Shown here: positions 2,666 through 64,000 of the stretch, in pieces
Layout of the letters: every line of letters begins with the position of its first letter
How positions within the stretch are numbered: position 1 is the first letter of the stretch
Position numbers and translations under genes: made by a program
Assembly: GCF_050920415.1 (NCBI RefSeq)
Contig: NZ_CP169309.1
Direction: 5' to 3' (one strand)
Length of the DNA: 64,000 nucleotides
DNA from: Escherichia coli
GTDB lineage: Bacteria > Pseudomonadota > Gammaproteobacteria > Enterobacterales > Enterobacteriaceae
Notes under the pieces: model-generated
Databases searched by the model: none
Told to the model about the DNA's origin: nothing
What the model saw: the letters and a program-made list of their open reading frames with translations, nothing else

Positions 2666-3400
2666 ATGTCCAAACTCGATCTAAATGCGCTGAACGAACT
2701 GTCGAAGGTAGATCGCATTCTGGCGCTGGCGGAAACTAACGCCGAGCTTGAAAAACTGGATGCTGAAGGCCGCGTCGCCTGGGCGCTGGATAATCTGCCC
2801 GGTGAATATGTGCTTTCTTCCAGCTTCGGCATTCAGGCGGCGGTGAGCCTGCATCTGGTGAATCAGGTTCGCCCGGATATTCCGGTGATCCTCACCGATA
2901 CGGGTTATCTGTTCCCTGAAACCTACCGCTTTATTGACGAGTTAACGGACAAACTCAAGCTCAACCTGAAAGTGTACCGCGCTACCGAAAGCGCTGCCTG
3001 GCAGGAAGCACGCTACGGCAAACTGTGGGAACAGGGCGTTGAAGGCATTGAAAAGTACAACGATATCAACAAAGTCGAACCGATGAACCGGGCGCTGAAA
3101 GAACTAAACGCGCAAACGTGGTTTGCTGGCCTGCGCCGTGAACAATCCGGCAGCCGCGCTAATTTACCGGTGCTGGCAATTCAGCGTGGTGTATTCAAAG
3201 TGCTGCCGATTATCGACTGGGATAACCGAACTATTTATCAGTACCTGCAAAAACATGGCCTGAAATATCATCCATTATGGGACGAAGGATATTTATCGGT
3301 CGGTGATACCCATACAACCCGTAAATGGGAACCTGGTATGGCGGAAGAAGAAACGCGTTTCTTTGGCTTAAAAAGGGAATGTGGGCTGCACGAAGGGTAA
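2666..3400 (+). CDS. cysH: Phosphoadenosine phosphosulfate (PAPS) reductase
   Basis: 244-aa ORF with PAPS reductase family sequence and the C-terminal ECGLH motif; sits downstream of cysJI. Confidence 0.95.
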
Positions 3401-3757: not shown

Positions 3758-6424
3758 ATGGAACCTTTTAAATATATATGTCATTACTGGGGGAAATCCT
3801 CAAAAAGCCTGACGAAAGGAAATGATATTCATCTGTTGATTTATCATTGCCTGGATGTTGCAGCTGTTGCAGATTGCTGGTGGGATCAATCAGTCGTACT
3901 ACAAAATGCTTTTTGCCGAAATGAAATGCTATCAAAACAGAAGGTGAAAGCCTGGCTGTTATTTTTCATTGCCCTTCATGATATCGGAAAGTTTGATATA
4001 CGATTCCAATATAAATCAGCAGAAAGTTGGCTGAAATTAAATCCTGCAACGTCATCACTTAATGGTCCATCAACACAAATGTGCCGTAAATTTAATCATG
4101 GTGCAGCCGGTCTGTATTGGTTTAACCAGGATTCACTTTCAGAGCAATCTCCCGGGGATTTTTTCAGTTTTTTTGATGCCGCTCCTCATCCTTATGAGTC
4201 CTGGTTTCCTTGGGTAGAGGCCGTTACAGGACATCATGGTTTTATATTACATTCCCAGGATCAAGATAAGTCGCGTTGGGAAATGCCAGCTTCTCTGGCA
4301 TCTTATGCTGCGCAAGATAAACAGGCTCGTGAGGAGTGGATATCTGTACTCGAAGCATTATTTTTAACACCAGCCGGGTTATCTATAAACGATATACCAC
4401 CTGATTGTTCATCATTGTTAGCAGGTTTTTGCTCGCTTGCTGACTGGTTAGGTTCCTGGACCACAACGGATACCTTTCTATTCAAAGAAGATGCACCTTC
4501 AGGCATACAAGCGCTAAGAAAATATTTTCAGGATAGACAACAGGATGCGTGTCGGGTACTGGAGTTGAGTGGCCTTGTATCAAATAAGCGTAGTTATGAC
4601 GGCGTACATGCCTTACTGGACAATGGCTATCAACCAAGACAATTACAGGTGTTGGTTGATGCTCTTCCTACAGCTCCCGGGCTGACGGTGATTGAGGCAC
4701 CTACGGGATCAGGTAAAACCGAAACAGCGCTGGCCTATGCCTGGAAACTTATTGACCAACAACTTGCGGATAGTGTTATTTTTGCCCTCCCTACACAAGC
4801 TACTGCAAATGCAATGCTCAGCAGAATGGAAGCGAACGCGAGCCGTTTATTTACCTCCCCAAATCTTATTCTTGCTCATGGTAATTCACGTTTTAACCAC
4901 CTTTTTCAATCAATAAAATCACGCGCATTTACTGAGCAGGGGCAAGAAGAAGCGTGGGTTCAGTGTTGCCAATGGTTGTCACAAAGCAATAAGAAAGTGT
5001 TTCTTGGGCAAATAGGAGTTTGCACGATTGATCAGGTGTTGATATCGGTATTGCCAGTTAAACACCGCTTTATCCGTGGTTTGGGAATTGGTCGAAGTGT
5101 TTTAATTGTTGATGAAGTTCATGCTTACGACACGTATATGAACGGCTTGCTGGAGGCTGTGCTCAAGGCTCAGGCTGATGTGGGGGGGAGTGTTATTCTT
5201 CTTTCCGCAACTCTACCAATGAAACAAAAACAGAAACTTCTGGATACTTATGGTCTGCATACAGATCCAGAGGAAAATAACTCCGCATATCCACTCATTA
5301 ACTGGCGAGGTGTGAATGGTGCGCAACGTTTTGATCTGTTAGCTCATCCAGAACAACTCCCGCCCCGCTTTTCAATTCAGCTAGAACCTATTTATTTAGC
5401 TGACATGTTACCTGACCTTACGATGTTAGAGCGAATGATCGCAGCGGCAAACGCGGGTGCACAAGTCTGTCTTATTTGCAATTTGGTTGACGTTGCACAA
5501 GTATGCTACCAACGGCTAAAGGAGCTAAATAACACGCAAGTAGATATAGATTTGTTTCATGCACGCTTTACGCTGAACGATCGTCGAGAAAAAGAGAATC
5601 GTGTTATTAGCGATTTCGGAAAAAATGGGGATCGAAATGTTGGACGAATACTTGTCGCCACGCAAGTCGTGGAACAATCGCTCGACGTTGATTTTGATTG
5701 GTTAATTACCCAGCATTGTCCCGCAGATTTGCTTTTCCAACGATTGGGCCGTTTACATCGTCATCATCGCAAATATCGTCCCGCTGGTTTTGAGATTCCT
5801 GTTGCCACCATTTTGCTGCCTGATGGCGAGGGTTACGGACGACATGAGCATATTTATAGCAACGTTAGAGTCATGTGGCGGACGCAGCAACATATTGAGG
5901 AACTTAATGGAGCATCCTTATTTTTCCCTGATGCTTACCGGCAATGGCTGGATAGCATTTACGATGATGCGGAAATGGATGAGCCAGAATGGGTCGGCAA
6001 TGGCATGGATAAATTTGAAAGCGCCGAGTGTGAAAAAAGGTTCAAGGCTCGTAAGGTTCTGCAGTGGGCTGAAGAATATAGCTTGCAGGATAACGATGAA
6101 ACCATTCTTGCGGTAACGAGGGATGGGGAAATGAGCCTGCCATTATTGCCTTATGTACAAACGTCTTCAGGTAAACAACTGCTCGATGGCCAGGTCTACG
6201 AGGACCTAAGTCATGAACAGCAGTATGAGGTGTTAGCACTTAATCGCGTCAATGTACCCTTCACTTGGAAACGTAGTTTTTCTGAAGTAGTAGATGAAGA
6301 TGGGTTACTTTGGCTGGAAGGGAAACAGAATCAGGATGGATGGATCTGGCAGGGTAATAATATTGTTATTACCTACACTCGGGATGAAGGGATGACCAGA
6401 GTCATCCCTGCAAATCCCAAATAA
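3758..6424 (+). CDS. cas3: Cas3 HD nuclease / DEAD-box helicase (type I-E)
   Basis: 888-aa ORF with an N-terminal HD domain (HDIGK), a Walker A motif (APTGSGKT) and a DEVH box; immediately precedes casABCDE. Confidence 0.95.
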   Translation: MEPFKYICHYWGKSSKSLTKGNDIHLLIYHCLDVAAVADCWWDQSVVLQNAFCRNEMLSKQKVKAWLLFFIALHDIGKFDIRFQYKSAESWLKLNPATSSLNGPSTQMCRKFNHGAAGLYWFNQDSLSEQSPGDFFSFFDAAPHPYESWFPWVEAVTGHHGFILHSQDQDKSRWEMPASLASYAAQDKQAREEWISVLEALFLTPAGLSINDIPPDCSSLLAGFCSLADWLGSWTTTDTFLFKEDAPSGIQALRKYFQDRQQDACRVLELSGLVSNKRSYDGVHALLDNGYQPRQLQVLVDALPTAPGLTVIEAPTGSGKTETALAYAWKLIDQQLADSVIFALPTQATANAMLSRMEANASRLFTSPNLILAHGNSRFNHLFQSIKSRAFTEQGQEEAWVQCCQWLSQSNKKVFLGQIGVCTIDQVLISVLPVKHRFIRGLGIGRSVLIVDEVHAYDTYMNGLLEAVLKAQADVGGSVILLSATLPMKQKQKLLDTYGLHTDPEENNSAYPLINWRGVNGAQRFDLLAHPEQLPPRFSIQLEPIYLADMLPDLTMLERMIAAANAGAQVCLICNLVDVAQVCYQRLKELNNTQVDIDLFHARFTLNDRREKENRVISDFGKNGDRNVGRILVATQVVEQSLDVDFDWLITQHCPADLLFQRLGRLHRHHRKYRPAGFEIPVATILLPDGEGYGRHEHIYSNVRVMWRTQQHIEELNGASLFFPDAYRQWLDSIYDDAEMDEPEWVGNGMDKFESAECEKRFKARKVLQWAEEYSLQDNDETILAVTRDGEMSLPLLPYVQTSSGKQLLDGQVYEDLSHEQQYEVLALNRVNVPFTWKRSFSEVVDEDGLLWLEGKQNQDGWIWQGNNIVITYTRDEGMTRVIPANPK

Positions 6425-6838
6425 CTTCGGGAATGATTGGTATCAATGACGATAACAAGACCAATAACGGTTTATCCCTACTTAAGTAGGGAAGGTGCAC
6501 AATGTACATCTTCTTTTAATTTCCCGGTATGAGATTTTATATTCACAGTATGAATATTTTATGTAATAAAATTTATGGTAATTATTATAACTAAAAATTT
6601 CTTTGATAATAAAACGAATAACTTGCAGATTTGAAATGCATGCATTATTGTCTTTAAACAATTCAACACATCTTAATATATGCATAGGTTAATTGTATTA
6701 AACCAATGAATATATTTTTGCAGTGAATGTGATTATTGAATTAATTACGCCGTATTTTTTCTTTGTTTTTACCGATAACGGAAGTGTGCCGACGTATAGA
6801 AATGCAGGAGAAATGTCGGAGCATATGAAGGAGAACAA
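6425..6838 (+). promoter_or_regulatory. AT-rich cas3-casA intergenic region carrying the Cascade operon promoter (H-NS/LeuO-regulated in K-12)
   Basis: 414-bp strongly AT-rich non-coding stretch directly upstream of casA. The promoter assignment comes from published K-12 work, not from exact motif positions read here. Confidence 0.45.
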
Positions 6839-8347
6839 ATGAATTTGCTTATTGATAACTGGATCCCTGTACGCCCGCGAAACGGGGGGAAAGTCCAAAT
6901 CCTAAATCTGCAATCGCTATACTGCAGTAGAGATCAGTGGCGGTTAAGTTTGCCCCGTGACGATATGGAACTGGCCGCTTTAGCACTGCTGGTTTGCATT
7001 GCACAAATTATCGCCCCGGCAAAAGATGACGTTGAATTTCGACATCGCATAATGAATCCGCTCACTGAAGATGAGTTTCAACGACTCATCGCGCCGTGGA
7101 TAGATATGTTCTACCTTAATCACGCAGAACATCCCTTTATGCAGACCAAAGGTGTCAAAGCAAATGATGTGACTCCAATGGAAAAACTATTGGCAGGGGT
7201 AAGCGGCGCGACGAATTGTGCATTTGTCAATCAACCGGGGCAGGGTGAAGCATTATGTGGTGGATGCACTGCGATTGCGTTATTCAACCAGGCGAATCAG
7301 GCACCTGGTTTTGGTGGTGGCTTTAAAAGCGGTTTACGTGGAGGAACACCTATAACCACCTTCGTATGTGGGATCGATCTTCGCTCGACGGTGTTACTCA
7401 ATGTCCTCACAATACCTCGTCTTCAAAAACAATTTCCCAATGAATCAAATACGGAAAACCAACCTACCTGGATTAAGCCTGTCAAGCCCAATGAATCTGT
7501 GCCAGCTTCGTCAATTGGGTTTGTCCGTGGCTTATTCTGGCAACCAGCGCATATTGAATTATGCGATCCCATTGGGATTGGTAAATGTTCTTGCTGTGGA
7601 CAGGAAAGCAATTTGCGTTATACAGGTTTTCTTAAGGAAAAATTTACCTTTACAGTTAATGGGCTATGGCCCCATCCGCATTCCCCTTGTCTGGTAACAG
7701 TCAAGAAAGGGGAGGTTGAGGAAAAATTTCTTGCTTTCACCACCTCCGCACCATCATGGACGCAAATCAGCCGAGTTGTGGTAGATAAGATTATTCAAAA
7801 TGAAAATGGAAATCGCGTGGCGGCGGTTGTGAATCAATTCAGAAATATTGCGCCGCAAAGTCCTCTTGAATTGATTATGGGGGGATATCGTAATAATCAA
7901 GCATCTATTCTTGAACGACGTCATGATGTGCTGATGTTTAATCAGGGGTGGCAACAATACGGCAATGTTATAAACGAAATAGTGACTGTTGGTTTGGGGT
8001 ATAAAACAGCCTTACGCAAGGCGTTATATACTTTTGTGGAAGGTATTAAAAATAAAGACTTTAAAGGGGCTGGAGTCTCTGTTCATGAGACTGCAGAAAG
8101 GCATTTCTATCGACAGAGTGAATTATTAATTCCCGATGTATTGGCGAATGTTAATTTTTCCCAGGCTGATGAGGTAATAGCTGATTTACGAGACAAACTT
8201 CATCAATTGTGTGAAATGCTATTTAATCAATCTGTAGCTCCCTATGCACATCATCCTAAATTAATAAGCACATTAGCACTCGCCCGCGCCACGCTATACA
8301 AACATTTACGGGAGTTAAAACCGCAAGGAGGGCCATCAAATGGCTGA
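6839..8347 (+). CDS. casA: Cascade large subunit Cse1/CasA
   Basis: 502-aa ORF at the head of the Cascade operon; start MNLLIDNWIPVRPR matches Cse1. Confidence 0.95.
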   Translation: MNLLIDNWIPVRPRNGGKVQILNLQSLYCSRDQWRLSLPRDDMELAALALLVCIAQIIAPAKDDVEFRHRIMNPLTEDEFQRLIAPWIDMFYLNHAEHPFMQTKGVKANDVTPMEKLLAGVSGATNCAFVNQPGQGEALCGGCTAIALFNQANQAPGFGGGFKSGLRGGTPITTFVCGIDLRSTVLLNVLTIPRLQKQFPNESNTENQPTWIKPVKPNESVPASSIGFVRGLFWQPAHIELCDPIGIGKCSCCGQESNLRYTGFLKEKFTFTVNGLWPHPHSPCLVTVKKGEVEEKFLAFTTSAPSWTQISRVVVDKIIQNENGNRVAAVVNQFRNIAPQSPLELIMGGYRNNQASILERRHDVLMFNQGWQQYGNVINEIVTVGLGYKTALRKALYTFVEGIKNKDFKGAGVSVHETAERHFYRQSELLIPDVLANVNFSQADEVIADLRDKLHQLCEMLFNQSVAPYAHHPKLISTLALARATLYKHLRELKPQGGPSNG

Positions 8348-8822
8348 TGAAATTGATGCAATGGCTTTATATCGAGCCTGGCAACAGCTGGATAACGGAG
8401 CATGTGCGCAAATTAGACGTGTTTCAGAACCTGATGATTTACGCGATATCCCTGCGTTTTATCGGTTGGTGCAACCTTTTGGTTGGGAAAACCTGCGTCA
8501 CCAACAGGCTCTTTTGCGCATGGTGTTTTGCCTGAGCGCAGGAAAGAATGTCATCCGACATCAGGATAAAAAACCGGAGCAAACAATAGGTATCTCGTTG
8601 GGAAGAGCTTTAGCCAATAGTGGAAGAATTAACGAGCGCCGTATCTTCCAATTGATTCGGGCTGACAGAACAGCCGATATGGTCCAGTTACGTCGATTGC
8701 TTGCTCACGCCGAACCCGTACTTGACTGGTCATTAATGGCCCGGATGTTGACCTGGTGGGGAAAGCGCGAACGCCAGCAACTTCTGGAAGATTTTGTATT
8801 GACCACAAACAAAAATGCGTAA
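8340..8822 (+). CDS. casB: Cascade small subunit Cse2/CasB
   Basis: 160-aa ORF overlapping the casA 3' end by 8 nt; position and size match Cse2. Confidence 0.93.
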   Translation: MADEIDAMALYRAWQQLDNGACAQIRRVSEPDDLRDIPAFYRLVQPFGWENLRHQQALLRMVFCLSAGKNVIRHQDKKPEQTIGISLGRALANSGRINERRIFQLIRADRTADMVQLRRLLAHAEPVLDWSLMARMLTWWGKRERQQLLEDFVLTTNKNA

Positions 8823-8834
8823 GGAAACCTCTCA

Positions 8835-9926
8835 ATGTCTAATTTTATTAATATCCATGTCCTGATCTCTCACAGCCCTTCATGTCTGAACCGCGACGAT
8901 ATGAACATGCAGAAAGACGCTATTTTCGGCGGGAAAAGGCGAGTAAGAATTTCAAGTCAAAGCCTTAAACGTGCGATGCGTAAAAGTGATTATTACGCAC
9001 AAAATATTGGTGAATCCAGTCTCAGAACAATTCATCTTGCACAATTACGTGATGTTCTTCGGCAAAAACTTGGTGAACGTTTTGAGCAAAAAATCATCGA
9101 TAAGACATTAGCTCTGCTCTCCGGTAAATCAGTTGATGAAGCTGAAAAGATTTCTGCCGATGCGGTTACTCCCTGGGTTGTGGGAGAAATAGCCTGGTTC
9201 TGTGAGCAGGTTGCAAAAGCAGAGGCAGATAATCTGGATGATAAAAAGCTGCTCAAAATTCTTAAGGAAGATATTGCCGCTATCCGTGTGAATTTACAGC
9301 AGGGGGTTGATATTGCGCTTAGCGGAAGAATGGCAACCAGCGGCATGATGAGTGAGTTGGGAAAAGTTGATGGTGCAATGTCCATTGCGCACGCGATCAC
9401 GACCCATCAGGTTGATTCTGATATTGACTGGTTCACCGCCGTAGATGATTTACAGGAACAAGGTTCTGCACATCTGGGAACACAGGAATTTTCATCGGGT
9501 GTTTTTTATCGTTATGCCAACATTAACCTTGCTCAACTTCAGGAAAATTTAGGCGGCGCCTCCTGGGAGCAGGCTCTGGAAATTGCAACCCATGTTGTTC
9601 ATATGCTGGCAACAGAGGTCCCTGGAGCAAAACAGCGTACTTATGCCGCTTTTAACCCTGCGGAGATGGTAATGGTTAATTTCTCCGATATGCCACTTTC
9701 TATGGCAAATGCTTTTGAAAAAGCGGTGAAAGCGAAAGATGGCTTTTTGCAACCGTCTATACAGGCGTTTAATCAATATTGGGATCGCGTTGCGAATGGC
9801 TATGGTCTGAACGGAGCTGCTGCGCAATTTAGCTTGTCTGACATGGACCCAATTACTGCTCAGGTTAAACAAATGCCTACTTTAGAACAGTTAAAATCCT
9901 GGGTTCGTAATAATGGCGAGGCGTGA
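8835..9926 (+). CDS. casC: Cascade backbone subunit Cas7/CasC
   Basis: 363-aa ORF in operon position 3. Confidence 0.95.
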
Positions 9927-9928
9927 AC

Positions 9929-10603
9929 ATGAGATCTTATTTGATCTTGCGGCTTGCTGGGCCAATGCAAGCCTGGGGGCTGCCGACCTTTGAAGGAACG
10001 CGACCTACCGGAAGATTTCCGACCCGAAGCGGGTTATTAGGGCTACTCGGGGCTTGTCTTGGGATCCAACGTGATGATACTTCTTCATTACAGGTGTTAT
10101 CAGAGAGTGTGCAATTTGCAGTGCGTTGCGATGAACTCATTCTTGACGATCGTCGTGTGTCTGTAACGGGGTTGCGTGATTACCATACAGTCCTTGGAGC
10201 GCGAGAAGATTACCGTGGTTTGAAAAGTCATGAAACGATTCAAACATGGCGCGAATATTTATGTGATGCCTCCTTTACCGTCGCTATCTGGTTAACACCA
10301 CAGGCAACGATGGTTATGTCAGAACTTGAAAAAGCAGTATTAAAGCCTCGGTATACACCGTATCTGGGGCGGAGGAGTTGTCCGCTAACACAACCGCTTT
10401 TTCTCGGGACATGTCAGGCGTCGGATCCTCAGAAGGCGCTATTAAATTATGAGCCCGTTGGCGGCGATATTTATAGTGAGGAATCAGTTGACGGGCATCA
10501 TTTAAAATTTACGGTGCGCGACGAACCGATGATCACCTTACCTCGACAATTTGCTTCCCGGGAATGGTATGTGATTAAAGGAGGTATGGATGTATCTCAG
10601 TAA
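9929..10603 (+). CDS. casD: Cascade subunit Cas5/CasD
   Basis: 224 aa from the ATG at 9929 (the ORF track begins 2 codons earlier at a GTG); start MRSYLILRLAGPMQAWG. Confidence 0.9.
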   Translation: MRSYLILRLAGPMQAWGLPTFEGTRPTGRFPTRSGLLGLLGACLGIQRDDTSSLQVLSESVQFAVRCDELILDDRRVSVTGLRDYHTVLGAREDYRGLKSHETIQTWREYLCDASFTVAIWLTPQATMVMSELEKAVLKPRYTPYLGRRSCPLTQPLFLGTCQASDPQKALLNYEPVGGDIYSEESVDGHHLKFTVRDEPMITLPRQFASREWYVIKGGMDVSQ

Positions 10604-11189
10604 AATCATCATTGCCAGGGCCTGTAGCAGGGATCTTTACCAACTTCACCAGGGATTATGGCATTTATTTCCAAATAGACCAGATGCTGCTCGTGATTTT
10701 CTTTTTCATGTTGAGAAGCGAAACACACCAGAAGGCTGTCATGTTTTATTGCAGTCAGCGCAAATGCCTGTTTCAACTGCCGTTGCGACAGTCATTAAAA
10801 CTAAACAGGTTGAATTTCAACTTCAGGTTGGTGTTCCACTCTATTTTCGGCTTCGGGCAAATCCGATCAAAACTATTCTCGACAATCAAAAGCGTCTGGA
10901 CAGTAAAGGGAATATTAAACGCTGTCGGGTTCCGTTAATAAAAGAAGCAGAACAAATCGCGTGGTTGCAACGTAAATTGGGCAATGCGGCGCGCGTTGAA
11001 GATGTGCATCCCATATCGGAACGGCCACAGTATTTTTCTGGGGAAGGTAAAAATGGAAAAATCCAAACGGTTTGCTTTGAAGGTGTGCTCACCGTCAATG
11101 ACGCATCAGCGTTAATGGATCTTATACAGCAAGGTATTGGGCCAGCCAAATCGATGGGATGTGGTTTGCTATCTTTGGCTCCACTGTGA
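10590..11189 (+). CDS. casE: Cas6e/CasE pre-crRNA endoribonuclease
   Basis: 199-aa ORF overlapping the casD 3' end; Cas6e family. Confidence 0.95.
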   Translation: MYLSKIIIARACSRDLYQLHQGLWHLFPNRPDAARDFLFHVEKRNTPEGCHVLLQSAQMPVSTAVATVIKTKQVEFQLQVGVPLYFRLRANPIKTILDNQKRLDSKGNIKRCRVPLIKEAEQIAWLQRKLGNAARVEDVHPISERPQYFSGEGKNGKIQTVCFEGVLTVNDASALMDLIQQGIGPAKSMGCGLLSLAPL

Positions 11190-11204
11190 TTGAGGTGTAA
11201 TAAA

Positions 11205-12408
<1,204 letters not shown>

Positions 12409-12513
12409 AAACAAAGAATTAGCTGATCTTTAATAATAAGGAAATGTTACATTAAGGTTGGTGGGTTGTTTTTATGGGAAAAAATGCTTTAAGAACAAAT
12501 GTATACTTTGAGA
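12409..12513 (+). promoter_or_regulatory. CRISPR leader (AT-rich; array promoter and integration-proximal region)
   Basis: About 105-bp AT-rich sequence between the cas2 stop and the first repeat. Confidence 0.7.
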
Positions 12514-13701
12514 GAGTTCCCCGCGCCAGCGGGGATAAACCGCTCGCGTATACTCTCTGCCAACGTCTCCAGATGAGTTCCCCGCGCCAGCGGGGATAAA
12601 CCGGCGGGATTATCGGCACTGACGTCGGCGCTGTGGAGTTCCCCGCGCCAGCGGGGATAAACCGGGTCGCTTCCATATATGAACCTTGAGGATTAGGAGT
12701 TCCCCGCGCCAGCGGGGATAAACCGGTTCCATGCACTGCCCGCAGTGTCAGCCGTACGAGTTCCCCGCGCCAGCGGGGATAAACCGGTAAATCATACGTT
12801 GGCATCAGTATTTTTCTCGAGTTCCCCGCGCCAGCGGGGATAAACCGACTCCGCGCCATTTGAGAATTCTCAGTTCTGCGAGTTCCCCGCGCCAGCGGGG
12901 ATAAACCGCTACTGCTGTCAGACGGCAGGGCAAAACAGCGGAGTTCCCCGCGCCAGCGGGGATAAACCGGACGTGCGGATGCTGTTTCTGGTTTTACCTC
13001 CGAGTTCCCCGCGCCAGCGGGGATAAACCGTTTTTTCTCAGCGTCTGGCAGAGCTAATCGCCGAGTTCCCCGCGCCAGCGGGGATAAACCGGTGTCAAAT
13101 TTCATGTAATTGATGATCCAGCTGAGTTCCCCGCGCCAGCGGGGATAAACCGGGTATTTCTCGTTAACACGGTCGTATCAAAACGAGTTCCCCGCGCCAG
13201 CGGGGATAAACCGAGGGGTTGCAACCATAGCCCTTAGTTGATTGCGAGTTCCCCGCGCCAGCGGGGATAAACCGCCAGTGGATTTTAATAAACTCTCCAG
13301 CGAGCAGAGTTCCCCGCGCCAGCGGGGATAAACCGTTCGCCACGTCAGGCGTGATTTCCTGCACTGAGAGTTCCCCGCGCCAGCGGGGATAAACAGGGCG
13401 CGTCTGCGCCCGCTAGGACTCGTGTCAAGAGTTCCCCGCGCCAGCGGGGATAAACCGGGAGTTCAGACATAGGTGGAATGATGGACTACGAGTTCCCCGC
13501 GTTAGCGGGGATAAACCGCCCGGTAGCCAGGTTTGCAACGCCTGAACCGAGAGTTCCCCGCGCCAGCAGGGATAAATCGGCAACGACGGTGAGATTTCAC
13601 GCCTGACGCTGGTGTTCCCCGCATCAGCGGGGATAAACCGGGCGCACTGGATGCGATGATGGATATCACTTAGAATTCCCCGCCCCTGCGGTAGAACTCC
13701 C
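12514..13701 (+). CRISPR. Type I-E CRISPR array: 19 regular 29-bp repeats plus one degenerate terminal repeat, 19 spacers of 32 bp
   Basis: Repeat GAGTTCCCCGCGCCAGCGGGGATAAACCG recurs with an exact 61-bp period from 12514 to 13612. Repeats at 13368, 13490, 13551 and 13612 carry point variants, and a heavily degenerate terminal repeat sits at 13673-13701. Confidence 0.97.
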
Positions 13702-34572: not shown

Positions 34573-37134
34573 TTACACCAGACTCTTCAAGCGATAAATC
34601 CATTCCAGCGCCTGACGCGGGGTAAGTGAATCCGGGTCAAGATTTTCCAGCGCTTCGACCGCTGGCGACGTTTCTTCCGGTACTGACAGCAAAGACATTT
34701 GCGTACCATCCACTTGCGTAGCGGCGGCGTTCGGCGAAATGCTTTCCAGTTCACGCAGTTTTTGCCGTGCGCGCTTAATCACCTCTTTTGGCACGCCCGC
34801 CAGAGCAGCAACCGCCAGGCCGTAGCTTTTGCTCGCCGCGCCATCCTGCACACTGTGCATAAAGGCGATGGTGTCGCCGTGCTCCAGTGCATCGAGATGC
34901 ACGTTGGCGACGCCTTCCATTTTCTCCGGCAGTTGAGTCAGTTCAAAGTAGTGGGTAGCAAACAACGTCAACGCTTTAATCTTATTCGCCAGATTTTCAG
35001 CGCACGCCCATGCCAGCGACAGACCATCGTAAGTGGACGTTCCGCGCCCAATCTCATCCATCAACACCAGGCTGTACTCCGTGGCGTTATGCAGAATATT
35101 GGCGGTTTCGGTCATCTCCACCATAAAGGTTGAACGCCCGGATGCCAGATCGTCAGCCGCGCCCACACGGGTAAAGATACGATCGATAGGTCCAATCTCG
35201 ACTTTTTGCGCCGGTACGTAGCTGCCGATATAGGCCATCAGCGCAATCAGTGCGGTCTGGCGCATATAGGTACTTTTACCGCCCATATTCGGACCGGTGA
35301 TGATCAACATGCGACGCTGCGGCGACAGGTTCAGCGGGTTAGCGATAAACGGCTCATTCAGTACCTGTTCAACCACCGGATGGCGACCTTCGGTAATGCG
35401 AATGCCCGGTTTATCAATGAAGGTCGGGCAGGTGTAGTTCAGGGTATAGGCTCGTTCCGCCAGGTTTACCAGTACGTCGAGTTCTGCCAGTGCGCTCGCG
35501 CTCTGTTGCAACGCTTCCAGATGCGGCAACAGCAGGTCGAACAACTCTTCATAAAGCTGTTTTTCCAGTGCCAGCGCTTTACCTTTCGAGGTGAGTACTT
35601 TGTCTTCATACTCTTTTAGCTCTGGAATAATGTAGCGTTCGGCGTTTTTCAGCGTCTGACGACGCATATAGTTGATGGGTGCCAGATGGCTTTGTCCACG
35701 GCTAATCTGAATGTAATAACCATGCACCGCGTTAAAGCCGACTTTCAGCGTGTCCAGGCCGGTACGTTCACGCTCGCGAACTTCCAGACGCTCCAAATAA
35801 TCTGTCGCGCCGTCAGCCAGCGCGCGCCACTCATCCAGCTCTTCGTTATAGCCTGATGCGATAACACCACCGTCGCGTACCAGCACCGGCGGTGTGTCGA
35901 TGATTGCTCGCTCCAGCAGATCGCGCAGCTCTGCAAACTCGCCCATTTTCTCACGCAGCGCCTGTACCGGTGCACTATCGACACTTTCTAACTGCGCGCG
36001 TAGTTCTGGCAGTTGCTGGAAAGCGTGACGCATACGGGCCAGATCGCGTGGGCGAGCAGTCCGTAAAGCCAGACGTGCCAGAATACGTTCCAGGTCGCCG
36101 ACCTGACGCAGTACCGGCTGCAGCTCAGCGGTGAAATCCTGCAATGCGCCAATAGTTTGCTGGCGCTCAAGCAACACGCGGGTATCGCGCACTGGCATAT
36201 GCAGCCAGCGCTTCAGCATACGACTCCCCATCGGCGTTACAGTGCAGTCGAGCACGGAAGCCAGCGTGTTTTCCGCACCGCCCGCCAGGTTCTGGGTAAT
36301 TTCCAGGTTACGGCGCGTCGCGGCATCCATAATGATACTGTCCTGCTCACGTTCCATAGTGATAGAACGAATGTGCGGCAGAGTCGTACGTTGAGTATCT
36401 TTCGCATACTGCAACAGACAACCGGCGGCACAAAGTCCGCGCGGCGCGTTCTCGACGCCAAAACCGACCAGATCGCGAGTGCCAAATTGTAGATTCAACT
36501 GCTGGCGCGCGGTGTCGATTTCAAACTCCCACAGCGGACGACGACGCAGGCCGCGACGACCTTCAATCAGCGACATTTCAGCAAAATCTTCTGCATACAG
36601 CAGTTCCGCCGGATTAGTGCGTTGCAGTTCTGCCGCCATCGTTTCGCGGTCAGCCGGTTCGCTCAGGCGAAAACGACCGGAACTGATATCCAGCGTCGCG
36701 TAGCCGAAACCTTTACTGTCCTGCCAGATAGCCGCCAGCAGGTTGTCCTGACGCTCCTGCAACAGCGCTTCATCGCTGATGGTGCCCGGCGTAACGATAC
36801 GCACAACTTTGCGCTCAACCGGACCTTTGCTGGTCGCCGGATCGCCAATTTGTTCGCAGATGGCAACGGACTCGCCCTGATTCACCAGTTTGGCGAGGTA
36901 GTTTTCCACCGCATGGTATGGAATCCCCGCCATCGGGATCGGCTCTCCCGCGGAAGCGCCGCGTTTGGTCAGTGAAATATCCAGCAGTTGTGACGCACGT
37001 TTTGCGTCGTCATAAAACAGTTCGTAAAAGTCACCCATCCGGTAGAATAGCAGGATCTCGGGATGCTGGGCTTTCAGCTTGAGATACTGCTGCATCATGG
37101 GCGTATGGGCATCGAAATTTTCTATTGCACTCAT
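34573..37134 (-). CDS. mutS: DNA mismatch repair protein MutS
   Basis: 853-aa ORF with a Walker A motif (GPNMGGKST); start [17 protein letters not shown]. Confidence 0.97.
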
Positions 37135-37380
37135 GGGGTTATGTCCGGTTCCCTGATATTAAATGGGGTGTGATGGTTTTTATTTTCGTTGTAATCACAT
37201 AAGGCGCACATGATACCGGAGTTAATCATTTCAGGGGAAGAAGCGAACGGCGAGTTCTTGATGGTGATTCCGGGAAAGATGCTGTTTTGCAGCTTTTGCG
37301 TGATGCTTATGAAGCAAGTACGCAAAATTGTATCAGTTGGCGACCCCTTCTTCTTCAGAGCCATAGTCCCCTTTCAAATT

Positions 37381-37403
37381 AAGTTGTAATATAAATACAT
37401 CTT
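37381..37403 (+). promoter_or_regulatory. Putative NsrR operator upstream of ygbA
   Basis: aagttgtaatataaatacatctt resembles the NsrR inverted-repeat box, with the right half (AAATACATCTT) well conserved; ends 18 nt before the ygbA ATG. Confidence 0.4.
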
Positions 37404-37420
37404 AAGAGTATGGAGGCAGC

Positions 37421-37774
37421 ATGTCTGGCAAGCGTATCTCTCGTGAAAAACTGACGATTAAAAAAATGATCGATCTTTATCAAGCGAAATGCCCGCAGGC
37501 GTCAGCGGAGCCGGAGCATTACGAAGCGTTGTTTGCCTACGCGCAAAAACGGCTGGATAAATGTGTGTTCGGCGAAGAGAAACCCGCCTGTAAGCAGTGT
37601 CCGGTGCACTGTTACCAGCCTGCAAAGCGTGAAGAGATGAAACAGATTATGCGTTGGGCCGGGCCGAGAATGCTGTGGCGTCATCCGATCCTAACCGTAC
37701 GCCATCTCATTGATGACAAGCGTCCGGTGCCGGAGTTGCCAGAAAAATATCGCCCGAAAAAACCTCGTGAATAG
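37421..37774 (+). CDS. ygbA: Nitrous oxide-stimulated promoter family protein YgbA
   Basis: 117-aa ORF with Cys motifs (CPQ...CKQC); divergent from mutS. Confidence 0.88.
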   Translation: MSGKRISREKLTIKKMIDLYQAKCPQASAEPEHYEALFAYAQKRLDKCVFGEEKPACKQCPVHCYQPAKREEMKQIMRWAGPRMLWRHPILTVRHLIDDKRPVPELPEKYRPKKPRE

Positions 37775-37812
37775 TATACCGGACAGGCAGATCTGTCCGG
37801 CACCTCATGCAG

Positions 37813-39891
37813 TTAAACCAATGCCGATTTATCAATCCCCAGTCGTTTCATCCGTGATAGCAGTGTGGTGCGTTTTAGTCCCAGACGTTGCGCCGCGCCT
37901 TTCGGCCCGGCAACCACGCCGTTAGTCTCTTTTAATACACGCACAATTAGCTGATATTCATCTTCGCCCTCCTGAGCGACGACCGTTGCAGTCGGCGGCG
38001 TTTTAGGTTCCGGTAAAGCAATATCAGGCAATGACAGCTGCAGCACGTTGCCACGTGTCAGCAATACCGCGCGCTCAATGACGTTTTCCAGCTCGCGTAC
38101 ATTACCTGGCCACTCCATATTGCTCAACGCGCGCAATGTTTCGGCAGGAATGCTGTCGATATTACGCCCCAGACGGCGGGCAATTTTAAAAGTAAAGGCT
38201 TTCGCCAGCAGCGGAATATCTTCCGGACGCTCGCGTAGTGGCGGCAGGTGGATCGGGAATACGTTCAGACGGTAATAGAGATCGCTACGGAACTCGCGGT
38301 CGGCAACCATTTTTTTCAGATCGCGGTTAGTCGCGGCAATTAAACGCACGTCCGTCTGTATAATTTTATTACTGCCGAGACGTTCAAACTCCTGTTCCTG
38401 TAATACACGCAGCAACTTCGGTTGTAACTCCAGCGGCATATCACCCACTTCATCGAGGAACAGGGAGCTTTTATCCGCCAGTTCAAAACGACCGATACGC
38501 TGGGCGCTGGCTCCGGTAAACGCACCACGCTCATGGCCAAACAGATCGCTTTCCAACAATCCGGCAGGCATCGCCGCGCAGTTCATTTTTACCATGCGGC
38601 GATTATTACGCCCACTGAGATTATGGATCGCGCGGGCAATCAGCTCTTTACCAGTGCCAGTTTCACCGAGGATCAGAACTGTACTGTCACTTTGTGCCAC
38701 CATTTCAACTTGTTTAAGCACGCTGTACATGGCTTCACTGCGACCAATAATCTCGCCAAATTCACTATCAACATTGTTGAGCTGCTCGGTCAGGGCGAGA
38801 TTTTCATCAACCAGTCGTTCTTTCAGACGATGAATTTCCTGATAGGCAAGGGCGTTATCGACAGCGATTGCCACACGTTCGGCAATCTGGCGCAGTAAAT
38901 TCAGATTGGTCGTGGTAAACACTTTCTCTTCGCATTGCGCCAGTTTCAGCACGCCCAGCATGGTGTCGCCAGACATCAGCGGTAACAGGCACAAGGTTTG
39001 AATCTGGTTGCCCCAGGTGTCGAACAACATGCGTTCGTAGGGGGCTAAATTATCTCGCTCGTGGAGATTAATCAGCAGCATCTCTTTGCTTTTAAACACG
39101 CGTTCGGTGAGGGTTCCTGCTTCATCGACTTCGCTCTGTTCGTGAGCGGGATGCTGTTTATCAAGATAGTGAGTGGAGTAGATGTTGAGTTTGTTTTTAC
39201 GGTGGCTGCGTAAGACGATGCTGATATCGTCAATGTCGAAATAGTAATGGATTTCTTTGGCGACTTCGCTGACCAGTTCGTCCATATCCAGGCGAGAAAG
39301 CACCGCGTTGGTGATGGCAACCAGGATGCGGAAGTTATCGCGTTCCCGGCATAACAACTCATAGTCGACATTATTGACGACGCGGCTCTGGATTTGTTCG
39401 GTGACGACAGAAATGATCTGCGTAAAAGTTTGCAGGCGATTGAACTCTTTTTCACTCCACGGGCGATCGTCATAACGAATAAATTCACAGCCACCAAAAA
39501 TATGCCCTTCCGCCGCCAGTGGCATCAGGCAATAGTGACCAAATTTGGGGTATAGCCCACCAGCGGCCAGCTGCGGCCAGGTTTCACAAAATTCTTCGTA
39601 ACTGCAATGCAGTGTATCAGGGCGCGACAAAATGCTGCGCACCGGACCGTGTGCCAGAACAGTTTCGTCTTCATAATTTATGGGGGTGTCTTTTTCACGC
39701 GACGCGTAATAAGACGCACGTTGAGTATGCGCTTGCCACAACACAATAGCTGCATTGTCGGCGAGCGCAGAACGCTTTACCAATTGCGAAAGAGCCTCAC
39801 ACAGCGAGGCCAGATCGGGCTGCTGCAATAGTGTCCGAGTGATGTCGAACAACCCTTGTTGTCCGAGATCACTCATCGGTGTATATGACAT
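37813..39891 (-). CDS. fhlA: Formate hydrogenlyase transcriptional activator (sigma-54-dependent enhancer-binding protein)
   Basis: 692 aa from the ATG at 39891 (MSYTPMSDLGQQ...); GAF domains, an AAA+ sigma-54 interaction domain ([14 protein letters not shown]) and a C-terminal HTH. Confidence 0.95.
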   Translation of the reverse strand: MSYTPMSDLGQQGLFDITRTLLQQPDLASLCEALSQLVKRSALADNAAIVLWQAHTQRASYYASREKDTPINYEDETVLAHGPVRSILSRPDTLHCSYEEFCETWPQLAAGGLYPKFGHYCLMPLAAEGHIFGGCEFIRYDDRPWSEKEFNRLQTFTQIISVVTEQIQSRVVNNVDYELLCRERDNFRILVAITNAVLSRLDMDELVSEVAKEIHYYFDIDDISIVLRSHRKNKLNIYSTHYLDKQHPAHEQSEVDEAGTLTERVFKSKEMLLINLHERDNLAPYERMLFDTWGNQIQTLCLLPLMSGDTMLGVLKLAQCEEKVFTTTNLNLLRQIAERVAIAVDNALAYQEIHRLKERLVDENLALTEQLNNVDSEFGEIIGRSEAMYSVLKQVEMVAQSDSTVLILGETGTGKELIARAIHNLSGRNNRRMVKMNCAAMPAGLLESDLFGHERGAFTGASAQRIGRFELADKSSLFLDEVGDMPLELQPKLLRVLQEQEFERLGSNKIIQTDVRLIAATNRDLKKMVADREFRSDLYYRLNVFPIHLPPLRERPEDIPLLAKAFTFKIARRLGRNIDSIPAETLRALSNMEWPGNVRELENVIERAVLLTRGNVLQLSLPDIALPEPKTPPTATVVAQEGEDEYQLIVRVLKETNGVVAGPKGAAQRLGLKRTTLLSRMKRLGIDKSALV

Positions 39892-39964
39892 TTTGTTCTT
39901 CCAGGAAAGCACCGCAAAGCGGTGCAAAAGGTCATTGACTAAATATAGGAGATTTAGAATTTTA

Positions 39965-44255: not shown

Positions 44256-44379
44256 GCTGAGGCTTTGCCCGTTTTGCAGGCGTTACGCCTGTTTGGGGAT
44301 GGGCGTGTCGATGAGTGTCGAAAATGACATTTCATCGGCATGTTTTCGTCAAAAATGACAATCACCTGAGGAATGCCTG

Positions 44380-51823: not shown

Positions 51824-52135
51824 ATGCACATCATTTCTAAAGCGCCATTTGAAGAGTCTGCGCGTAAATATCCTAACGACGCTCTGGCTCTACACTCATT
51901 GTATCGGGTTATTAAGGAAACGGATTTTTCTACGCCAGAAGAAATGCGAACGGCGTTTCCCAACCTCGACAATTTTAAATATCGCAATAAATGGTACGTT
52001 CTGGATGTAGGCGGGAACAATCTTAGGGTTATTGCCTACATAAACTTTGTTAATAAGCGGTTCTTTGTGAAGCACATAACGAATCATGCCGAGTATGACA
52101 AACTGACACGTTACTACAGAGAGAACAAAGAATGA
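51824..52135 (+). CDS. HigB-like type II toxin (RelE/ParE superfamily mRNA interferase)
   Basis: 103-aa ORF (MHIISKAPFEE...FPNLDNFKYRNKWYVLDVGGNNLRVIAY...) with HigB-family architecture; Shine-Dalgarno aggaag upstream; 4-nt overlap (ATGA) with the downstream antitoxin gene; AT-richer than the flanking hyc genes. Confidence 0.75.
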   Translation: MHIISKAPFEESARKYPNDALALHSLYRVIKETDFSTPEEMRTAFPNLDNFKYRNKWYVLDVGGNNLRVIAYINFVNKRFFVKHITNHAEYDKLTRYYRENKE

Positions 52136-52551
52136 CTGCTAATGCTGCACGCGCTGTTAAAGCAACAAGAGAACTGGTCAATGCAGTCCCCTTTCTGGGA
52201 GGCAGTGACTCAGAAGATGATTATCGTGAAGCACTGGAACTGGTCGAATATTTGATTGAAGAAGATGACACCAATCCACTTATCGACTTTCTGGCGAGCC
52301 GTATTGCAGAATATGAAAACAACCACGAAAAGTTTGCAGAGTTCGATAAAGCCGTTGCAGCAATGCCGATTGGCGTGGCGTTACTTCGCACGCTGATTGA
52401 TCAACATAATCTGACCTATGCGGATTTGAAGAACGAAATCGGCTCTAAATCCCTGGTCAGTCAGATTTTGTCTGGACAAAGATCCCTGACGATATCCCAC
52501 ATTAAGGCACTTTCAGCCCGATTTGGCGTTAAGCCGGAATGGTTTCTTTGA
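52132..52551 (+). CDS. HigA-like antitoxin (XRE-family HTH)
   Basis: 139-aa ORF whose C-terminal HTH (GSKSLVSQILSGQRSLTISHIKALSARFGV) and N-terminal region resemble HigA; toxin-first gene order typical of higBA. Confidence 0.75.
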   Translation: MTANAARAVKATRELVNAVPFLGGSDSEDDYREALELVEYLIEEDDTNPLIDFLASRIAEYENNHEKFAEFDKAVAAMPIGVALLRTLIDQHNLTYADLKNEIGSKSLVSQILSGQRSLTISHIKALSARFGVKPEWFL

Positions 52552-60001: not shown

Positions 60002-61135
60002 CTACATCGGCAAGGTTTTCAACATTCCAAACGCCTCTTTCATCCGATCCTCACTGACTACAAAGGCGCGAAGCTGGTCGGCATCGTCAACGCCGCGCGC
60101 CACCATTCCCTGGCTTTCGGTACAAATCTGCCAGCGCAAATCCTGACGCTGGGTTTCGCCTGCCAGATGCAGCGGTAATTCCGGCGTTTTGATTTTCACC
60201 AGCATCGCCGGTAGTTTCAGCGGCGTGTTATTGCCGAGAAGATTTTTTGCCAGCACCATCGCGCTAAGTTGAATCGGCTGGAGGAACGGCAATACCTGAC
60301 CGTTAATTTCTGCGCAATCGCCCAGCGCGTAAATATCGGCATTACTGGTTTGCAGATAGCTATCGACGCAAACGCCGCGATTAATCGTCAGCCCGGCGCG
60401 TCGTGCCAGGGCGGTTTCCGGGCGCAGTCCGGTGGCGGCAATTACCGCATCCACTTCGATGCTGCGCTGGCGGTCCAGCGTTGCCAGAATGCCATAATTC
60501 GTTTTTTCCAGCCCCTGCAACTGAGATTTCAACAGCAGATGAACGCCCATCTCCGTCAACCGATGCTGTAAGCGACTGCTTACTTCCGGTGGCATTAACG
60601 ACGCCAGAATACTGGCAGCGTTGTCGATTAGCGTGACCGCTTTGCCTGCCCGACAAAAATCCATCGCCAGCTCGCTACCAATCAAGCCACCGCCTACAAT
60701 CAACACCCGTCGGGCATCCCGCAGTTGTGTTTCACAGGCGCGATATTCTTGCTGACTATTTAACGTCAGCATTAACTCACGCCCAGGCACCGGCGGGACA
60801 AAGGCGCTGGCTCCGGTAGCCAGCACTAGCTTGTCGTATTGCCACTGATTATTCTGGCTTTTCACCACATGGGCTTCGGCATCGATATCCGTCACCCAGG
60901 TGTGCGGAAACAGGCGCAGATTAAACTGCTCGGCAAATTCACCCGCCGTCTGGCGGGTAAGGTCGTCGGCACGTTGCCCCTGACTGATCACATGGCTAAG
61001 ATCAGGTTTGTTGTACTCATCCATGCTGTCGGCGGCAATCAGGGTCAATGGAATACTGGCGTCCTGTTTGCGAATATTTTTCACCAGTTGGCGGGCGGCG
61101 AAGCCCGAACCAATGATCACAATGCCGTTGCTCAT
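60002..61135 (-). CDS. norW: NADH:flavorubredoxin reductase
   Basis: 377-aa ORF with FAD/NAD Rossmann motifs (GSGFAA, GGGLIG); 4-nt overlap with norV. Confidence 0.94.
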
Positions 61136-62571
61136 TTTGCCTCCGATGCCAGTTCGTCAAAGACGTCTTTGCCAAGGGAGCATTCCGGGCACAGGAAGTT
61201 ATCCGGGACTTCACTCCACGGCGTTCCTGGCGCAACGTCCTGCATTGGCTCGCCTTTTGCCGGATCGTAAATCCACTGGCAGACGCTGCACTGCATCCGT
61301 GGGCCGAGGTCAGCCGTCGTGGTGGCACAGGTTTCTTCTTTAACCACCGTATTCACCGTGCTTTGCGGCAGCGGCGAAAGCGCCCACTGACGGGCAATTT
61401 CACGACCGTGTTCACGGCATAATTCCAGTGCATCCTGGTCCGGTCGCCATTTGGCTTTCAGGCTAAGCGACATTTCGAAACCCGCATCTTGCAGGCGCGT
61501 GGAAAGACGATCCACGGCACCGCCGCTCCAGCCGTGAGAGCCGAAAGCACTGGCGCGTTTGTTACGGAAGCGTAATCCGGTCATCTCCTCCACCAGCCCG
61601 GCGATTTTCGGCATCATCACGTTATTCATCGTCGAAGTGCCAACCAGCACGCCTTTTGAGCGGAAGACATTGGTCAAGATTTCGTTTTTATCGCTTCGGG
61701 CGACGTTGAAAATTTTCACCGCCACGCGCGGGTCGGTTTCCGCAATCCCCTGGGCGATAGCGTCAGCCATCATGCGGGTGTTATTCGACATGGTGTCGTA
61801 GAAAATGGTGATTCTGTCTTCCTGATAATCCGCCGCCCATTTCAGGTACAGCTCGACAATTTGCGTCGGGTTATCGCGCCATACCACGCCGTGAGAGGTG
61901 GCAATCATATCGACCGGCAAGTTAAAGCCCAGGATCTCGGTGATTTTCGGCGTTACCAGGCGGCTGAACGGTGTCAGGATATTGGCGTAGTAACGCTGAC
62001 ACTGCTCGAAAAGCTCGGTCTGATCCACTTCATCGTTGAAGAGATGCTCGTCGCAGTAGTGCTGACCGAAAGCATCGTTACTGAACAGCACCGCGTCGCC
62101 CGTCAGGTAAGTCATCATGCTGTCCGGCCAGTGCAGCATTGGCGTTTCGACAAAAATGAGCTGTTTGCCGTTGCCGATATCCAGCGTGTCACCAGTTTTC
62201 ACCACATTAAAATTCCACTCCGGATGATGGTGATGACCATTTATTGAGTCGATAGCGTTGGCAGTACAATAGATCGGCGTATCGGGAATTTGCGCCATCA
62301 GTTCGGTCAGCGCCCCGGCGTGGTCCTCTTCAGCATGGTTAATCACGATGTAATCGATATCCGCCAGATCGATTTCATTACGCAGGTTCTGCACAAATTC
62401 GCGGCTGAATTTATGGTCGACGGTGTCGATCAGCACGTTTTTTTCTTCACGAATGAGGTAGCTGTTGTAGCTGCTGCCGCGCAGCGTTTTATATTCCGTG
62501 CCGTGAAAATCACGCACTTCCCAGTCACGTTGACCAACCCAATGAATGTTATTTTTCACCACAATAGACAT
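61132..62571 (-). CDS. norV: Anaerobic nitric oxide reductase flavorubredoxin
   Basis: 479-aa ORF with metallo-beta-lactamase-like, flavodoxin and C-terminal rubredoxin (CxxC...CxxC) domains. Confidence 0.95.
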
Positions 62572-62618
62572 AGCAACCTCAATTTATTCAGCGTGTTCTA
62601 AAAAGATGTCTTGCTAAT

Positions 62619-62634
62619 TGCAGATTGCGTGCCA
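62619..62634 (-). promoter_or_regulatory. Sigma-54 promoter (-24/-12) of norVW
   Basis: Minus-strand TGGCACGCAATCTGCA (GG-N10-GC) about 50 bp upstream of the norV start. Confidence 0.6.
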
Positions 62635-62689
62635 GTTTTTTATCTGATTGTTTTTACTATACAAATAAAATTATGCTCATTAATGAGTA

Positions 62690-62757: not shown

Positions 62758-64000
62758 ATGAGTTTTTCCGTTGATGTGCTGGCGAATATCGCCATCGAAT
62801 TGCAGCGTGGGATTGGTCATCAGGACCGTTTTCAGCGCCTGATCACCACGCTGCGTCAGGTGCTAGAGTGCGATGCGTCTGCGTTGCTACGTTACGACTC
62901 GCGGCAGTTTATTCCGCTTGCCATCGACGGGCTGGCGAAGGATGTTCTCGGTAGACGCTTTGCGCTGGAAGGGCATCCACGGCTGGAAGCGATTGCCCGC
63001 GCCGGGGACGTGGTGCGCTTTCCCGCAGACAGCGAATTGCCCGATCCCTATGACGGTTTGATTCCAGGGCAGGAGAGTCTGAAGGTTCACGCCTGTGTTG
63101 GTCTGCCCTTATTTGCCGGGCAAAACCTGATCGGCGCACTGACGCTCGATGGGATGCAGCCCGATCAGTTCGATGTTTTCAGCGACGAAGAGTTACGGCT
63201 GATTGCTGCGCTGGCGGCGGGAGCGTTAAGCAATGCGTTGCTGATTGAACAACTGGAAAGCCAGAATATGCTGCCAGGCGATGCCACGCCGTTTGAAGCG
63301 GTGAAACAGACGCAGATGATCGGCCTGTCGCCAGGCATGACGCAATTGAAAAAACAGATTGAGATTGTGGCGGCGTCCGATCTCAACGTCCTAATCAGTG
63401 GTGAGACGGGAACGGGTAAGGAATTGGTGGCGAAAGCGATTCATGAAGCCTCGCCGCGGGCGGTGAATCCGTTGGTCTATCTCAACTGTGCCGCACTGCC
63501 GGAAAGTGTGGCGGAAAGTGAGTTGTTCGGGCACGTGAAAGGGGCGTTTACTGGCGCTATCAGTAACCGCAGCGGGAAGTTTGAAATGGCGGATAACGGC
63601 ACGCTGTTTCTGGATGAGATCGGCGAGTTGTCGTTGGCATTGCAGGCCAAGCTGCTGAGGGTGTTGCAGTATGGCGATATTCAGCGCGTTGGCGATGACC
63701 GCAGTTTGCGGGTCGATGTGCGCGTGCTGGCGGCGACTAACCGCGACTTGCGCGAAGAGGTGCTGGCAGGGCGATTTCGTGCTGACTTGTTTCATCGCCT
63801 GAGTGTGTTTCCGCTTTTGGTGCCGCCGCTGCGTGAGCGGGGTGATGACGTCATTCTTCTGGCGGGGTATTTCTGTGAGCAGTGTCGTTTGCGGCTGGGG
63901 CTCTCCCGCGTGGTATTAAGTGCCGGGGCGCGGAATTTATTGCAACACTATAGTTTTCCGGGGAACGTGCGCGAACTGGAACATGCTATTCATCGGGCGG
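62758..64000 (+). CDS. norR: Anaerobic nitric oxide reductase transcriptional regulator NorR (sigma-54 enhancer-binding protein), 3' end outside the window
   Basis: Open frame from the ATG at 62758 to the window end ([18 protein letters not shown]...); GAF domain followed by an AAA+ domain ([14 protein letters not shown]); divergent from norVW. Confidence 0.93.

Follow-up and report, generated by a model that had tools for sequence, protein, structure and literature searches.

The 23 nucleotides at 37381-37403 of the 64,000-nt stretch of E. coli chromosome analysed here (the window) are, with high probability, the operator through which NsrR controls ygbA, occluding its core promoter until released by NO. 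NsrR control of ygbA through this site has been described before and belongs to textbook E. coli nitrosative-stress regulation; the window carries the operator as a rare allele with an equally good score. What is added is comparative only: the position of the operator is fixed across Enterobacteriaceae and, judging from the aligned sequences, it appears to share the bases of the -10 hexamer. NsrR is an NO-sensing repressor of the Rrf2 family, whose iron-sulfur cluster is attacked by NO; its gene, nsrR (yjeB), is a core E. coli gene and lies outside the window.

The NsrR site upstream of ygbA and its alleles

The window holds a single copy of the 23-mer AAGTTGTAATATAAATACATCTT, on the + strand at 37381-37403 and within the range 37365-37420 named in the original prediction, and a gap of 17 nt separates its end (37403) from the ATG of ygbA at 37421. 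It reads as an imperfect 11-1-11 inverted repeat, AAGTTGTAATA-T-AAATACATCTT, that is, two 11-bp halves resembling AAGATGCATTT with a 1-bp spacer, and its assignment as an operator, to which no strand is given, draws on matrix score, shuffles, orthology and conservation. Of the 11 positions, 8 are complementary between the two halves, which are of unequal quality. The left half-site AAGTTGTAATA (37381-37391, + strand) is degenerate, agreeing with AAGATGCATTT at 7/11 positions (7.15 bits), and includes most of the putative -10 hexamer described below. The right half-site (37393-37403, read on the - strand as AAGATGTATTT) is near consensus, with 10/11 matches and 14.95 bits, and is the top-scoring 11-bp half-site within 37135-37440. 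Against the core NsrR motif gATGyAT-N5-ATrCATc (Rodionov et al. 2005, PMC1274295), the core GTTGTAA-TATAA-ATACATC agrees at 5/7 positions on the left and 7/7 on the right.

A symmetrised matrix of 23 columns was built from the 25 published CFT073 NsrR 11-1-11 sites (PMC5320621 Table 4) that remained once ygbA was excluded and the identical entries for c0118 and c0233 were entered once; the sites of Rodionov 2005 Table S4, which contains DNR sites, were left out. With this matrix the ygbA site scored 22.3 bits and ranked first of the 63,978 positions in the window, and a matrix made from the ChIP-seq-positive sites only gave 22.4 bits. The score is above chance and inside the range of bound NsrR sites, the ygbA site outscoring 17 of the 26 sites in Table 4 (about rank 8 of 26 when the 25-site matrix is used). 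When the window was shuffled 200 times with its dinucleotides preserved, 22.3 bits was never reached (mean maximum 13.9, highest 19.8), and shuffling of the 286-nt mutS-ygbA spacer reached the score once in 5000 trials. The original prediction, made from the letters of the window, had placed an NsrR-like 11-1-11 repeat with a single strongly conserved half-site just upstream of ygbA and had named a matrix scan as the way to check it. The NsrR reading is supported by that scan, and the inequality of the halves is as it had been described.

Published evidence for the control of ygbA by NsrR comes from several strains. In K-12, ygbA is repressed by NsrR (Bodenmiller & Spiro 2006, as cited in PMC5320621) and its promoter was bound by NsrR in ChIP-chip (Partridge 2009, as cited in the same paper). 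In Salmonella, ygbA mRNA was up 31.8-fold in an nsrR mutant (Gilberthorpe et al. 2007, PMC2884951). Rodionov et al. 2005 (PMC1274295) name ygbA as an NsrR target via a personal communication. The site predicted at ygbA in CFT073 was without an NsrR peak in ChIP-seq, a result that the authors considered to be a false negative (PMC5320621, Mehta et al. 2015).

The operator is found in several versions within E. coli. In K-12 the orthologous allele, which likewise lies between mutS and ygbA, reads AAGATGTAATATAAATACATCTT and has 22 of 23 bases in common with the window; it carries A at site position 4, in the left half-site, where the window allele carries T. The spacing to the ATG is equal and the scores are close (22.45 bits in K-12 vs 22.31 in the window), while several further base changes are found in the operator flanks. 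The CFT073 site is given in Table 4 of PMC5320621 as AAGGTGCATTTATATTACAACTT, where its ln P of -16.65 passes the PatSer cut-off of -14.28. Set against the window allele, the reverse complement of this site, AAGTTGTAATATAAATGCACCTT, has 2 mismatches in 23 bases. The locus, the 11-1-11 geometry and the left half are common to both, and the differences fall in the right half, which is AAATGCACCTT in CFT073 and AAATACATCTT in the window. A fourth allele, AAGTTGTAATATAAATACACCTT, was seen in E. coli strain CUVET19-1993, and all four alleles score between 20.8 and 22.5 bits.

The NsrR operators of ytfE, hmp and hcp are likewise 23-bp 11-1-11 inverted repeats built on AAGATGCATTT, and the right half of the window site, AAATACATCTT, is one base away from the right half of the CFT073 ytfE operator, AAATGCATCTT. 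However, the ytfE operator is near-symmetric (31.8 bits), whereas the two halves of the ygbA operator are strongly unequal and the left one also serves as a -10-like TAnnAT hexamer.

Conservation of the site and the putative ygbA promoter

A scan for YgbA in a collection of species-representative genomes yielded 80 loci, from Escherichia, Citrobacter, Salmonella, Klebsiella, Enterobacter, Kluyvera, Raoultella and other genera. In all 80 species the best matrix match within 200 nt upstream of ygbA was separated from the start codon by 12-21 nt; the median score was 20.5 bits, and 68/80 reached at least 16 bits. This site was the highest-scoring position of the entire locus (~5.3 kb) in 79 of the 80, and 1858 control windows of 200 nt taken from the same loci gave a 99th percentile of 9.6 bits and a maximum of 14.2.

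The information content of each column was measured on 82 sequences anchored at the site. Upstream of the operator the profile is flat, at 0 to 0.4 bits, save for one G at -15 from the site start, which is found in 91% of the sequences and has T-rich columns before it. Inside the operator no variation is seen at A2, T7, A8, T12, C18, T22 and T23; conservation is 98-99% at A1, G6 and A11, and 95-96% at T16 and A19. Positions 7-12 read TAnnAT in 78 of the 80 species, the forms being TATTAT (52 species), TAAAAT (8), TAGAAT (7) and TAATAT (6), and all 80 hexamers agree with TATAAT at four or more of the six positions. In the NsrR matrix the favoured base is C at position 7 (61%) and T at position 11 (80%), and no base is favoured at position 12, the spacer. 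The mirror positions 13 and 17 are far less constrained than T7 and A11. The constancy of T7, A11 and T12, which the NsrR matrix does not call for, is therefore better explained by a -10 hexamer than by NsrR.

A simple sigma-70 consensus scan of 37100-37850 called no promoter, and a literature search for a ygbA transcription start site returned nothing; as the consensus scan called none, we infer the promoter from conservation. The putative -10 hexamer is TAATAT at 37387-37392 (+ strand), a 4/6 match to TATAAT occupying site positions 7-12. The conserved G is the third base of a hexamer lying exactly 17 bp upstream of TAnnAT, which points to a weak -35 element in the window, TAGTCC at 37364-37369 (+ strand; 3/6 to TTGACA, 17-bp spacer). 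In other genera the commonest form of this hexamer is CTGAAA, which agrees with TTGACA at 4/6 positions. By the geometry of the hexamers only, transcription would start at the A at 37399 (+ strand), 7 nt past the -10, giving a 22-nt leader. A Shine-Dalgarno sequence, GGAGG, can be read at 37412-37416 (+ strand), and in the alignment anchored at the site, columns +31 to +34 are G-rich and conserved. TATAAA at 37390-37395, considered as an alternative -10, is less likely, its last base being A where the canonical T is invariant; it too falls inside the operator.

The operator would therefore contain the -10 hexamer and span about -18 to +5 of the ygbA promoter. The overlap with the core promoter that had been suggested at the outset is supported by the comparison of species, the TAnnAT motif being found inside the site in 78/80, and the site lies in the promoter region of ygbA with a predicted overlap of both the -10 and the +1. 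We consider it somewhat probable, from the comparison of sequences, that the ygbA operator and its -10 hexamer use the same bases in at least 80 species of enterobacteria. If true, this sharing would explain why the left half has been kept away from the NsrR consensus, and it would imply that the affinity of NsrR at ygbA derives mostly from the right half. It would also account simply for the asymmetry of the operator and make ygbA a clean system in which to study binding driven by one half-site.

Predicted mode of repression and alternative readings

In the proposed mechanism, a dimer of holo-NsrR would bind the 11-1-11 repeat, chiefly via the near-consensus, promoter-distal half at 37393-37403. 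The repeat would include both the putative -10 hexamer (37387-37392) and the putative start (about 37399), and because the operator would contain these elements, bound NsrR would be expected to block RNA polymerase from the core promoter. NO would then damage the iron-sulfur cluster of NsrR, so that the repressor dissociates from the operator and transcription of ygbA can begin. Such repression by classical steric occlusion is predicted from the putative positions of the -35, the -10 and the +1.

The asymmetry of the site raises the possibility that NsrR binds only through the single near-consensus half at 37393-37403, the left half being the -10 region and contributing little. The unequal scores of the halves (14.95 vs 7.15 bits) would fit such an arrangement, as would the left positions 9-12, which obey the rules of a -10 rather than those of NsrR, and one 11-bp motif may suffice as an NsrR site (Partridge 2009, as reported in PMC5320621). 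However, A1, A2 and G6, all outside the -10, show little or no variation among the 82 sequences and fit the NsrR matrix, which argues that both halves contribute. The complementarity of the halves at 8/11 positions and the publication of the full 23-mer as an 11-1-11 site (PMC5320621) also speak against a lone half-site, and we regard binding through that half only as unlikely. A more sceptical view is that the resemblance arose by chance in an AT-rich promoter, its conservation being due to the -10, the start and the leader only. A -10 and start region within the site would indeed be conserved regardless of NsrR, and the missing ChIP-seq peak at ygbA in CFT073 (PMC5320621) accords with this view. 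Yet shuffled sequences reach the score in only 1/5000 trials for the spacer and 0/200 for the window, the conserved bases A1, A2, C18, T22 and T23 fit the NsrR matrix while having no role in a -10 or +1, and ygbA is derepressed in nsrR mutants of both E. coli (as given in PMC5320621) and Salmonella (PMC2884951), all of which makes chance a highly improbable explanation.

Equally hard to sustain is the proposal that the site is the operator of another regulator, either an Rrf2 protein such as IscR, or Fur, FNR or NarL/NarP, with the dependence on NsrR being indirect. This proposal draws on the fact that ygbA sits in overlapping stress regulons, but the match to the NsrR matrix equals that of ChIP-confirmed sites (about rank 8/26), and NsrR was found at the promoter in the K-12 ChIP-chip experiment (Partridge 2009, via PMC5320621). 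Inspection of the mutS-ygbA spacer by eye revealed neither an FNR-type TTGAT-N4-ATCAA sequence nor a NarL-type heptamer. A search of Rfam at permissive thresholds gave only a sub-threshold match to lncRNA VIS1 (21.5 bits vs a gathering threshold of 100), thus no known RNA element accounts for the region. Direct NsrR control through the 11-1-11 repeat at 37381-37403 is the reading that we retain.

The ygbA locus and other loci in the window

The ygbA gene (37421-37774, + strand) encodes a protein of 117 aa belonging to the YgbA_NO family, as identified from the open reading frame, Pfam (PF11756, E 4.4e-41) and RefSeq annotation. Its upstream neighbour is mutS (34573-37134, - strand), and fhlA (37813-39927, - strand) is convergent with it. 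The stretch 37135-37800, which holds the spacer and ygbA, is carried by 5419 of the 5426 complete genomes of E. coli. It is 100% identical to that of strain MFDS1022581 and ~95% identical to K-12-type strains, and represents a rare haplotype, an identity of at least 99% being found in only 4 of 5420 matching records. Over the whole of 37135-64000 only 2 bases differ from MFDS1022581, and given this near-identity the RefSeq annotation of MFDS1022581 carries over directly to the window. In RefSeq, the gene for the formate hydrogenlyase activator (37813-39927, - strand) is called 'flhA'/'FlhA', a slip for fhlA that leaves the label open to confusion with the flagellar export gene.

Within the mutS-ygbA spacer, PGAP annotates a 59-aa 'hypothetical protein' at 37210-37389 (+ strand), the stop codon of which falls inside the left half-site of the NsrR operator. 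This reading frame is probably spurious; it has no Pfam match and was found in neither Citrobacter nor Salmonella. In Escherichia its first ~30 residues are conserved, with lengths of 43, 44, 51, 58 and 59 aa. The spacer also holds a terminator-like hairpin, GCTGTTTTGCAGC followed by TTTTGCGTGA, at 37281-37293 (+ strand), ~90 nt upstream of the operator. Between the convergent stops of ygbA and fhlA, at 37779-37800, sits a hairpin with a perfect stem of 8 bp, CCGGACAG-GCAGAT-CTGTCCGG (-15 kcal/mol, z -2.45), followed by no T-run on the + strand. It may serve as a bidirectional terminator or as an RNA-stability element.

The surroundings of ygbA vary in a few strains. The blood isolate E. coli p4A (NZ_CP049085.2; positions 3196-3210 of its locus) is without ygbA, the operator and the 3' end of fhlA, and in this strain fhlA is annotated as a partial pseudogene placed directly after the mutS-proximal 195 nt of the spacer. 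In E. coli E302 and CUVET19-1993, a gene for a TOBE-domain protein, and not fhlA, lies downstream of ygbA, which in these strains encodes 114 aa. The layout in E302 and CUVET19-1993 indicates that the 3' flank of ygbA is polymorphic within E. coli.

The original prediction had also counted ygbA as a second NO-responsive unit in the window, besides norR-norVW. This is supported for ygbA, but ygbA is not the sole extra NsrR-linked unit, as a further published NsrR site is found between hycA and hycB. The window holds NsrR-controlled sites at ygbA and hycA-hycB, plus the NorR-controlled norVW unit. The hycA-hycB sequence, AAATGACATTTCATCGGCATGTT, at 44322-44344 and 35 nt before the ATG of hycB, is the second-best NsrR match of the window, at 16.6 bits. 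The hycB site of PMC5320621 Table 4, which was positive in ChIP-seq, has the identical sequence and is part of the training set of the matrix. As 28 of 200 shuffles of the window reach 16.6 bits, the hycA-hycB sequence alone is weak evidence. From the annotation of MFDS1022581, norW lies at 60002-61135, norV at 61132-62571 and norR at 62758-64000. A matrix match in the norV-norR spacer (62615-62637, 10.5-11.9 bits) was rejected as shuffle noise, the mean maximum of the shuffles being 13.9 bits.

Elsewhere in the window, a type I-E CRISPR-Cas locus (cas3, casA-E, cas1 and cas2) occupies about 3760-13460. The core of its repeat, CCCCGCGCCAGCGGGGATAAACCG, is present in at least 15 copies at 12519-13457, and the array region shows a length difference of ~300 nt from the otherwise near-identical MFDS1022581. 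Between hycI and ascB, at 51824-52551, the RefSeq annotation of MFDS1022581 places a HigB-family toxin gene together with a helix-turn-helix antitoxin-like gene, and this segment looks like an accessory toxin-antitoxin insertion.
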